Positions 22,390 to 43,474 of a DNA stretch of 43,998 nt are shown piece after piece (within the stretch, counting starts at the first letter, position 1; every line of letters begins with the position of its first letter). The notes beneath the pieces were generated by a model, which ran no database searches, was not told the origin of the DNA, and worked only from the letters and a program-made list of their open reading frames with translations. The DNA is from Nanobdellati archaeon (GTDB taxonomy: Archaea > B1Sed10-29 > JAGVWA01): contig JAGVWA010000006.1 in NCBI GenBank assembly GCA_018304505.1, positions 1-43,998 on the forward strand, in the 5' to 3' direction. Made by a program: the position numbers and the translations under genes.

Positions 22390-22956
22390 CTAGATAACAA
22401 ACAGCAATGCAGACACCGTTATCGGCACCAACAAATTGTCGTCCAGCACCGCGAACAGCTCAATAAGTGCAGCGGCAAAGCAAGTGATAAATGCGACTAT
22501 TGGGGTTATAATAAAACTCACCGCTATAAAGCTACCGAAAAAACCCGCAAGGAACCCTTCAAGCGTCTTCTTTCCATGTATCTTGTGTTTCCCGTAAATC
22601 TTTCCAAATATTGTCGAGAAAGAATCGCCTATAGCCAGAATAATCATTGCAATGAACACCGCATCTTTTGGAAAAAACAGCAACGATACCAGCGCGCCCG
22701 TGATAAATGTGATGGCCCCAGTGCCCGGCCACACGCGCTTTCGCTCGAAATTCTTGAGTAACCACGATACTACCGGAATGCGCTTGTTGAACTTGGCCTC
22801 GCGCGAAACCAAAATAGCTATTATCAACATTCCACTGAGCAAGTTTATCAGCTCGGTTCTGTCAAAAATAAAAATCAGATAAGCAATGAACAGGCCAAAA
22901 ACTAAGTGAAACACGTTACGCTTAATTTCAAAACCAATTACTCGCTGTGTCGCCAT
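22390..22956 (-). CDS. Dolichol/phytol kinase-like protein (SEC59 / cytidylyltransferase family)
   Basis: E..R..FH, GD..S..FG..YG, KKTLEG, DDNL motifs; multi-TM. Confidence 0.85.
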   Translation of the reverse strand: MATQRVIGFEIKRNVFHLVFGLFIAYLIFIFDRTELINLLSGMLIIAILVSREAKFNKRIPVVSWLLKNFERKRVWPGTGAITFITGALVSLLFFPKDAVFIAMIILAIGDSFSTIFGKIYGKHKIHGKKTLEGFLAGFFGSFIAVSFIITPIVAFITCFAAALIELFAVLDDNLLVPITVSALLFVI

Positions 22957-23038
22957 GCATTATAATATAAGTTGGGGGTATAAATATCATGAGTATCACA
23001 AGCTTTTTATTCTCAATCCAGCAGAACCATAATTAGTT

Positions 23039-23146
23039 GGGCCCGTGGCTTAGCCTGGCAGAGCGCCGGTCTTATATGACACGTTCTGGTATATCCAGTT
23101 GTCTTGAGACAACCGGAGGTCCTTGGTTCGAATCCGAGCGGGCCCA
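23039..23146 (+). tRNA. tRNA-Ile(UAU) with a 34-nt canonical 37/38 intron (23077-23110)
   Basis: Acceptor stem GGGCCCG/CGGGCCC+A, D arm GCTT/GAGC, anticodon stem CCGGT/ACCGG with CT-TAT-A (TAT at 23073-23075), variable loop AGGTC, T arm CTTGG-TTCGAAT-CCGAG. The intron forms a BHB-like motif (CTTA/TGAG). TATA-like TTTTTAT about 30 nt upstream. Confidence 0.93.
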
Positions 23147-23148
23147 CT

Positions 23149-23375
23149 AGAGGGGGTTTCACATGCAACGAAGCATAGCTTCGTTGATGATTTGAAAAAC
23201 AGTGTTTTTCAAATCCCCTTCGATCCCTGACGCACTGCACTTGCCGGTGGCGAGGCAGAGCAGTTCTTTGATTTTGAAAAGAGGGGCTTGGGCTCATTCT
23301 ATCCCTGAAGTGGGGGCTTCGCCCCCACTACCCCTGACGTGCGCCTTCGGCAGCATTTATCATGATGCGAAGCTG
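23149..23375. repeat. Array of GC-rich inverted-repeat hairpins with 3-nt loops
   Basis: CAACGAAGC-ATA-GCTTCGTTG (23166-23186), GATTTGAAAAAC-AGT-GTTTTTCAAATC (23189-23215), CTTGCC-GGT-GGCGAG (23240-23254), AGTGGGGGC-TTC-GCCCCCACT (23309-23329), GCC-TTC-GGC (23343-23351), GC-GAA-GC (23367-23373). Confidence 0.75.
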
Positions 23376-43364: not shown

Positions 43365-43474
43365 GGGCTGCTAGCTTAGCCAGGATGGAGCACCCGACTG
43401 ATAATCGGGAACTCCTTAAGAAATTATTTCTTGGGAGTCGGGAAAGGTCGAGGGTTCAAATCCCTTGCGGCCCA
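43365..43474 (+). tRNA. tRNA-Ile(GAU) with a 35-nt non-canonical intron at 43/44 (43410-43444)
   Basis: Acceptor stem GGGCTGC/GCGGCCC+A, D arm GCTT/GAGC, anticodon arm CCCGA-CTGATAA-TCGGG (GAT at 43400-43402), hairpin insert, then AGGTC and T arm GAGGG-TTCAAAT-CCCTT. TTTTAAA promoter upstream and T-tract downstream. Confidence 0.88.

Follow-up and report, generated by a model that had tools for sequence, protein, structure and literature searches.

An intron-bearing tRNA-Ile(UAU) gene and the probable reading of AUA without TiaS in a small-genome DPANN archaeon

Positions 23039-23146 of the archaeal contig JAGVWA010000006.1 (43,998 nt, the whole stretch of DNA that was analysed and hereafter the window) very probably hold a functional tRNA-Ile(UAU) gene, by which a small-genome DPANN archaeon reads AUA with no need of tRNA-Ile2(CAU) or TiaS, a state that would be ancestral to its phylum. 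The means by which archaea lacking TiaS read AUA and avoid the misreading of AUG has been a question since agmatidine was described in 2010. In the 534 open reading frames of at least 200 codons in this genome, AUA makes up 31.6% of the isoleucine codons (23.8 per 1000), such that a dedicated decoder is needed, and as AUA is commoner than AUG (21.6 per 1000), the discrimination between these two codons matters. The gene described here adds no new kind of system to those already known. A conserved element of its intron, complementary to the exon, provides a testable lead on a possible intron dependence of the maturation of the UAU anticodon, such as occurs in eukaryotes.

Results

Gene anatomy and sequence support

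The gene is recognized on the plus strand by the Rfam tRNA model RF00005 (54.6 bits, E 3.7e-09, model positions 1-71), at a score above the family's gathering threshold of 29 bits, and the alignment contains a 35-nt insertion after the anticodon. ARAGORN, when run in intron mode, reads the same interval as a tRNA-Ile(tat) with a 34-nt intron, and the failure of a default tRNA finder to report any tRNA gene in the window is due to its having no intron mode. An earlier first-pass annotation, made from the letters of the DNA and its open reading frames, had described an Ile-type tRNA with a TAT anticodon at this location, a description that proved accurate to the base. Removal of the intron leaves an anticodon loop of seven nucleotides (CT-TAT-A at 23071-23076, followed by A38 at 23111), and all stems are intact in both the Rfam alignment and the constrained fold described below. 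Upstream lies an A/T-rich, TATA-like box (TTTTTATT) which, on the basis of the usual position of archaeal TATA boxes, is a putative promoter of the gene. The coordinates of these features are collected in Table 1.

Table 1. Positions in the window of the tRNA-Ile(UAU) gene, its parts and its companion gene.
Feature	Position	Strand	Basis and remarks
TATA-like box, A/T-rich, TTTTTATT	23004..23011	+	Read from sequence; upstream of the mature 5' end by some 30 nt; putative promoter
5' exon of tRNA-Ile(UAU), tRNA positions 1-37	23039..23076	+	Rfam alignment, ARAGORN intron mode, constrained fold
Anticodon TAT (U34 A35 U36)	23073..23075	+	Sequence, Rfam, ARAGORN; T34 is 23073
34-nt intron, canonical 37/38 position	23077..23110	+	Rfam, ARAGORN, constrained fold
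TGAG, the intron side of the 4-bp central BHB helix	23105..23108	+	Constrained fold; partner C32-U33-U34-A35, G23106 opposite U34
3' exon, tRNA positions 38-73	23111..23146	+	Sequence, Rfam, constrained fold; CCA not encoded
Element CGTTCTG of the intron, a complement of the D-loop/D-stem 3' strand	23082..23088	+	MFE fold, enrichment, covariation; mimics the D-stem 5' strand
CAGAGCG (last D-loop nucleotide, A21, D-stem 3' strand, G26)	23059..23065	+	MFE fold, covariation; partner of the intron element
Companion tRNA-Ile(GAU) for AUU/AUC	43365..43474	+	Rfam 50.8 bits, with CUGAUAA as the anticodon loop; a non-canonical intron is inserted downstream of the anticodon arm

Over 22900-23191, no letter differs in the assembled contigs (as distinct from raw reads) of four public runs, which stem from three studies, although two of these runs are a possible source of the window itself; at the level of contigs, the T at 23073 on which the anticodon assignment depends is thereby upheld. 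The neighbouring genes are ordinary, and include an epimerase, a carbamoyltransferase, a HAD hydrolase and a radical SAM protein. Shortly after the tRNA, on its downstream side, comes a stretch rich in palindromes (23162-23214) that is common to other contigs of the same metagenomes, with a summed depth of 40-80 against about 10 in its flanks, and that is perhaps a terminator element or a dispersed repeat.

Rfam places two tRNAs in the window, the second of which is the companion tRNA-Ile(GAU), mis-called as Pro by ARAGORN. The insertion in this gene, of some 33 nt, sits between copies of a TCGGGA motif, and because the motif is repeated the exact splice sites are ambiguous. Both Ile tRNA genes of the assembly reside on the window contig, whose G+C content (42.8%) is the lowest of the 21 contigs, the rest of which fall between 44 and 49%.

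Folds of the precursor

When the precursor was folded under the constraint of a cloverleaf, a motif of the hBHBh' type formed in the anticodon region. The anticodon stem is followed by a four-pair helix between C32-A35 and the intron strand TGAG, by bulges of three nucleotides each (U36-A37-U on the 5' side and A-C-A38 on the 3' side), and by an outer helix of GACA with UGUC; because one extra U stands opposite the 5' bulge, the motif is to be considered slightly relaxed. The wobble that the first-pass annotation had drawn between the TGAG strand and U34 is recovered in this fold. The unconstrained minimum free energy (MFE) fold is a helix between the intron and the D-arm (-48.4 kcal/mol, versus -40.5 kcal/mol for the cloverleaf with BHB), and the BHB motif is not formed in it. 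A splicing endonuclease domain (PF01974, 99.2 bits) is encoded at G000:C7:26257-26511, where G000 denotes this genome and C7 one of its contigs. It is the only match to the catalytic domain, falls within an open frame of 175 aa, and belongs to a genome that is rich in non-canonical introns.

TiaS and CAU tRNAs

The window is one whole contig of a 917,116-bp assembly (92.8% complete, 0.19% contaminated), and the genomes of relatives span 0.3-1.3 Mb. TiaS_FLD (PF08489) gave no match in this genome at E ≤ 1 in a search in which four archaeal controls did match, a full-length outgroup TiaS protein used as the query also returned nothing from it, and none of the 31 genomes of the phylum that were analysed has a TiaS match. 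The suggestion of the first-pass annotation that AUA is decoded here without TiaS is in agreement with each of these results.

Rfam counts 33 tRNAs in the assembly at E ≤ 0.001 (40 matches at E ≤ 10), and the sole CAU tRNA found is of the initiator type (A1:U72). The hunt for a second one comprised a T-arm scan, an anticodon-arm scan allowing for introns, a 5'-half scan, Rfam at E ≤ 10, and BLAST with DPANN elongator-Met sequences, none of which produced another CAU tRNA from the assembly. These scans did recover a number of cryptic, multi-intron tRNAs (Val-UAC, Lys-CUU, Glu-UUC, Glu-CUC, Gln-UUG, a second His and a second Val). Elongator tRNA-Met was also found by neither the scans nor BLAST in this assembly, and since it is present in relatives (one per genome in 23 of 30), the tRNA census must be incomplete; with roughly 7% of the genome missing, the absence of Ile2(CAU) has to be judged on more than this one genome. 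Apart from the initiator, the relatives have just one CAU gene with this D-arm, whose acceptor is of the elongator-Met type, and a GGGCC body occurs in none of them. Eleven of the 21 elongator-Met genes viewed have no intron at 37/38.

Many tRNA genes of this genome are heavily disrupted, with at least two introns, some of which lie in the T-loop after TTCAAATC; examples are found at C8:45476-45580, C15:34100-34270 (minus strand), C3:142640-142800 and C14:11090-11200. At its gathering threshold, Rfam misses several of the disrupted genes (Val-UAC, Lys-CUU, Glu and Gln). An intron-bearing tRNA at C19:9418-9525 with the loop T-C-GGG-G, called Phe by ARAGORN, is apparently a Pro(GGG) in which position 33 is C instead of U. 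We also observed an orphan tRNA-like fragment of 46 nt (C15:28946-28991, plus strand) in which a GGGCCCG start is joined directly to the 3' half of an anticodon stem, a T-arm and the 3' strand of an acceptor, and whose identity with the 3' end of the Ile(UAU) gene is 88%. A small ORF has the fragment at its end, and the island in which they lie includes PIN, nucleotidyltransferase and PaREP1-like genes; no integrase was seen among the 11 ORFs scanned. The idea that it is the 3' part of a split tRNA was set aside, as 5'-half scans of the genome yielded no partner.

Distribution and age of the UAU gene

Searches for the pattern AGAGCG-N5-CTTATA with tRNA-like stems recovered the UAU gene from 25 of the 31 genomes of the phylum, the six others being 67-90% complete. 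All 25 genes carry a homologous intron at 37/38, T34 is present in each of the 24 besides that of the window, and across 20 aligned relatives the gene is conserved with compensatory changes. UAU together with a homologous intron was found phylum-wide and in other DPANN groups as well.

On a wider scale, TiaS was found in 141 of 301 sampled archaeal genomes, and a cross-tabulation by hand places the UAU pattern in 111 of the 160 TiaS-less genomes versus 30 of the 141 that bear TiaS. Four matches from three of these 30 were viewed and none was a tRNA; the remaining 27 genomes were judged from the listed words only, which are unlike real anticodon stems. An apparent joint occurrence of TiaS and a UAU-like word in one genome (G064) was rejected, neither match being a tRNA. 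The trait is not confined to tiny genomes, as all 13 genomes of a TiaS-less family with genomes of 1.1-1.9 Mb (f30) show the pattern, and none of the 13 has TiaS. Nor does every archaeal UAU gene keep its intron, an idea we discarded when three of 40 genes from other families, in a sample chosen by exon pattern only, proved intronless. As judged from these comparisons of sequence, the UAU arrangement is ancestral to the whole phylum and common to many other TiaS-less archaea, among which, in the genomes sampled, it is the rule. The term "rare" applied to the gene at first pass was therefore an overstatement, the more so as the trait had been published for ARMAN archaea in 2011, as the available text of that report states (PMC3239211).

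Position 34 and its intron partner

The first-pass annotation further held that the gene arose from tRNA-Ile(CAU) by a C34U substitution. Precursors for comparison were drawn from the relatives and from a pattern scan of public genomes (at least 120 matches) whose design reaches only introns of about 13-43 nt; the relatives and the matches listed together gave 66 distinct UAU and 61 CAU precursors, and it is to this combined set that the following counts refer. Other archaea, in their intron-bearing CAU genes, place a G opposite C34 in 60 of 61 cases; opposite U34, the UAU genes have an A 42 times, a G 22 times and some other nucleotide twice. About 30 of the 61 CAU genes have an Ile body of the GGGC type, in records titled Thermoproteota, Bathyarchaeia, haloarchaea, Methanosarcinales, Archaeoglobus, Hadesarchaea and Nitrososphaerales. 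Within the phylum, a count over the 25 UAU genes gave about 13 with G opposite U34, 10 with A, and 2 that were ambiguous, the G being common to several families of the order and class.

A recent substitution, in which the gene was an Ile2(CAU) until lately and its intron is still uncompensated, would account for a TGAG strand that would match CUCA perfectly, and is in keeping with the near-universal G opposite C34 in CAU genes among the matches listed. We nonetheless regard such an event as very improbable, as relatives show a long-standing UAU with a homologous intron (T34 and the intron are present in all 24 of the other UAU genes of the phylum), G opposite U34 extends over several families, and none of the 31 genomes of the phylum yielded TiaS. 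The proposal thus fails as a recent, gene-specific change and is plausible only in an ancient form. More doubtful still is that T23073 is an assembly error, or that the gene no longer functions and the reading of AUA falls to an Ile2(CAU) and TiaS that went unassembled. The incompleteness of the genome and the missing elongator tRNA-Met that was expected in it speak for such an artefact, yet they are opposed by the agreement of the contigs from four runs, by intact stems that are conserved with compensatory changes in relatives, and by the want of TiaS in all 31 genomes, and we give this explanation almost no credence.

Derivation of the UAU gene from a tRNA-Ile(GAU) by duplication and G34U, with a separate gain of the intron, deserves more attention, and has been proposed for Korarchaeum, whose UAU gene has its own GAU gene as best hit according to the accessible text of that study (PMC6000648). 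The mature body of the gene studied here is as close to two Ile(GAU) tRNAs (identities of 0.77 and 0.82) as it is to CAU tRNAs of the Ile2-like type (median 0.80). Body identity is consequently uninformative as a judge between the two ancestries and, being no higher to CAU than to GAU, leaves the case for CAU ancestry to the intron. The intron, however, does not favour a GAU parent: the two outgroup GAU genes compared have none at 37/38, the GAU gene of the window has its insertion at another place, and the intron position together with a (T/G)GAG strand is common to intron-bearing CAU genes with a GGGC body in many archaeal groups. In addition, the intron partner of a G34 would be C or U, whereas G or A is observed. 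For these reasons we consider an origin from GAU unlikely.

It is plausible, though unproven, that an ancient C-to-U change took place in an intron-bearing Ile2(CAU) ancestor, and that compensation from G to A followed in some lineages while the G was kept here. To the extent that the sequences of relatives can be relied upon, the U34:G wobble is an old and tolerated state rather than the trace of a recent mutation, and may most simply be read as inherited from an intron-bearing ancestor of the Ile2(CAU) type, with the caveat that G:U and A:U pairs interconvert easily, such that a G opposite U34 may be derived rather than ancestral.

Complementarity between the intron and the D-arm

The helix that the MFE fold uses in place of the D-stem and the BHB pairs the intron segment CGUUCUG with CAGAGCG of the D-arm (23082-23088 with 23059-23065 in the window; loci L002-L025 and L188-L192 in relatives). 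We scored this element as at least seven contiguous pairs between the exon segment and the intron, and took the expected frequency from shuffled introns. It is present in 21 of the 25 UAU genes of the phylum (2.7 expected), in 43 of the 66 pooled UAU genes among the matches listed (6.4 expected), and in 13 of the 37 intron-bearing genes among 40 sampled from other families (3.4 expected; the other three are intronless). Among the matches listed, control target windows reach seven pairs in only 1-9 of 66 genes, and the CAU genes with a GGGC body have the element in 2 of 30 (1.3 expected).

As a MAFFT alignment of 60 exon-intron fragments put the element out of register, covariation was assessed by anchoring on the invariant AGAGCG and in a subset that is in register. 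In the anchored set (49 of 63 sequences anchored) the next pair is C:G in 15, U:A in 15 and U:G in 6, and is unpaired in 12, a result that none of 2000 shuffles equalled. The in-register subset (n = 17) has 95.6% of its cells paired, versus 26-51% when the partner is slid, and two extension pairs that lie outside the selection hold in 15 and 14 of the 17 sequences. RNAalifold, when applied to 20 full-length precursors, returned the plain cloverleaf only, with no helix between intron and D-arm.

It may be that this complementarity has no function of its own, and reflects chance, shared ancestry or a by-product of the origin of the intron. The RNAalifold result agrees with such a reading, as do the absence or weakness of the element in about two thirds of other lineages, the existence of UAU genes with no intron at all, and the relatedness of the sequences, by which the counts overstate independence. 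The enrichment is nevertheless far above that of shuffled introns in each of the three sets and above that of the control windows, the anchored position covaries, pairing is lost when the partner is slid, and G:U pairs are better suited to pairing in RNA than to a repeat in DNA. On balance we lean away from a functionless element, while regarding it as a serious possibility.

Among the CAU genes listed, the only other group with D-arm complementarity consists of elongator tRNA-Met(CAU) genes in records titled Methanobacteriaceae (L055, L071, L096, L097, L110 and L152), whose introns have 9-10 nt complementary to the 3' strand of the D-arm. A box C/D guide within the intron of the UAU gene was considered and dropped, since on inspection alone the intron is too short and has no box C or K-turn motifs. 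In the literature text that was searched, no description of an intron/D-arm pairing was found, and a search for TiaS jointly with DPANN returned an unrelated paper only. The element may thus be a new side observation, and one that merits follow-up.

Discussion

Given the anatomy of the gene, it is reasonable to postulate that its transcription yields a precursor of 108 nt, that the intron at 37/38 forms the slightly relaxed BHB and is cut out by the archaeal splicing endonuclease, and that ligation of the exons and addition of CCA follow. The mature tRNA, presumably charged with isoleucine, would carry a UAU anticodon that is genomically encoded, and for this reason would require neither tRNA-Ile2(CAU) nor TiaS and its product agmatidine.

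The manner in which such an anticodon would avoid AUG may involve the modification of U34 and U36, which is possible in this organism. The genome encodes Elp3 (654 bits), as well as TruD, Pus10 and a TruB_N/Cbf5-like protein; the TruA/Pus1 family (PF01416) has no match in it in a search in which 13 controls matched. From the accessible portions of published work, the U34 mutant of a haloarchaeal tRNA-Ile gains cnm5U and binds to AUA, AUG and AUU (PMC3895270), and in yeast the formation of pseudouridine 34 by Pus1 is promoted by the intron of tRNA-Ile(UAU), which also keeps Elp-dependent ncm5U34 from forming (PMC11408192).

A more speculative role may be envisioned for the 5' part of the intron (UGAC-A-CGUUCUG), as a covarying "anti-exon" that would pair with G30-C32 and with the 3' strand of the D-loop/D-stem through G26. 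The 5' half of the precursor would thereby refold to a long hairpin with U33-A37 in its loop, in competition with the D-stem and the BHB, and this hairpin could act as a maturation checkpoint by which the precursor is retained until U34 or U36 is modified, or as a shield of U34 from Elp3. A UAU anticodon that is unmodified or wrongly modified, and thus able to misread AUG, would in this way be kept out of translation. We think it rather doubtful that the element acts in this capacity; were it to do so, the intron-dependent pathway of the eukaryotic tRNA-Ile(UAU) would have its counterpart in archaea.

With respect to known systems, the reading of AUA by UAU in the absence of TiaS has already been published for ARMAN archaea, which include Micrarchaeota. 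According to the available text of Fujishima et al. (2011, PMC3239211), ARMAN-2, -4 and -5 possess tRNA-Ile(UAU) and have neither tRNA-Ile(CAU) nor homologues of TiaS, and a structural follow-up from 2025, as far as its available text describes, uses the same tRNA-Ile(UAU) precursor of ARMAN-2 as substrate (PMC12397907). The precursor of ARMAN-2 (Ca. Micrarchaeum) resembles that described here in belonging to a DPANN archaeon, in its UAU anticodon and BHB intron at 37/38, and in the lack of TiaS; tRNA-Ile(CAU) is absent from ARMAN-2, and none was found in the incomplete tRNA census of the present genome (PMC3239211, PMC12397907). By the same accounts, its intron is of 25 nt and forms a strict hBHBh' motif, whereas that of the present gene is of 34 nt and has an extra nucleotide opposite the 5' bulge; the ARMAN-2 endonuclease is a three-unit epsilon2 enzyme, whereas the sole domain match here lies in a frame of 175 aa. 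The other published cases of UAU are Nanoarchaeum equitans and Korarchaeum cryptofilum, which are also TiaS-less and have UAU instead of Ile2(CAU), the Korarchaeum gene also having an intron (PMC6000648); these belong to other phyla than the present genome, and the likeness is drawn from the available parts of published descriptions (PMC6000648, PMC3895270, bioRxiv 10.1101/614032).

The archaeal tRNA-Ile2(CAU) itself has in common with this gene an acceptor of the GGGCC type, the D-arm sequence AGAGCG and, often, an intron at 37/38 with a (T/G)GAG strand that pairs with positions 32-35. It differs in that its C34 is converted to agmatidine by TiaS, whereas here position 34 is T and TiaS was not found. 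A comparable solution is seen in the bacterium Mycoplasma mobile, where in a reduced genome the enzyme modifying C34 has been lost and AUA is read by a tRNA-Ile(UAU), according to the accessible text of PMC3575796. The enzyme lost is TilS rather than TiaS and the gene has no protein-spliced intron; bacterial tRNAs typically do without such introns, as stated in the accessible part of PMC11408192. The eukaryotic tRNA-Ile(UAU), by that same part of PMC11408192, is like the present gene in that UAU is genomically encoded and the intron occupies 37/38, and Elp3 is encoded here also. In eukaryotes, pseudouridines 34 and 36 are formed by Pus1 in an intron-dependent manner, whereas no protein of the TruA/Pus1 family was found in the genome from which this intron-bearing tRNA-Ile(UAU) derives.
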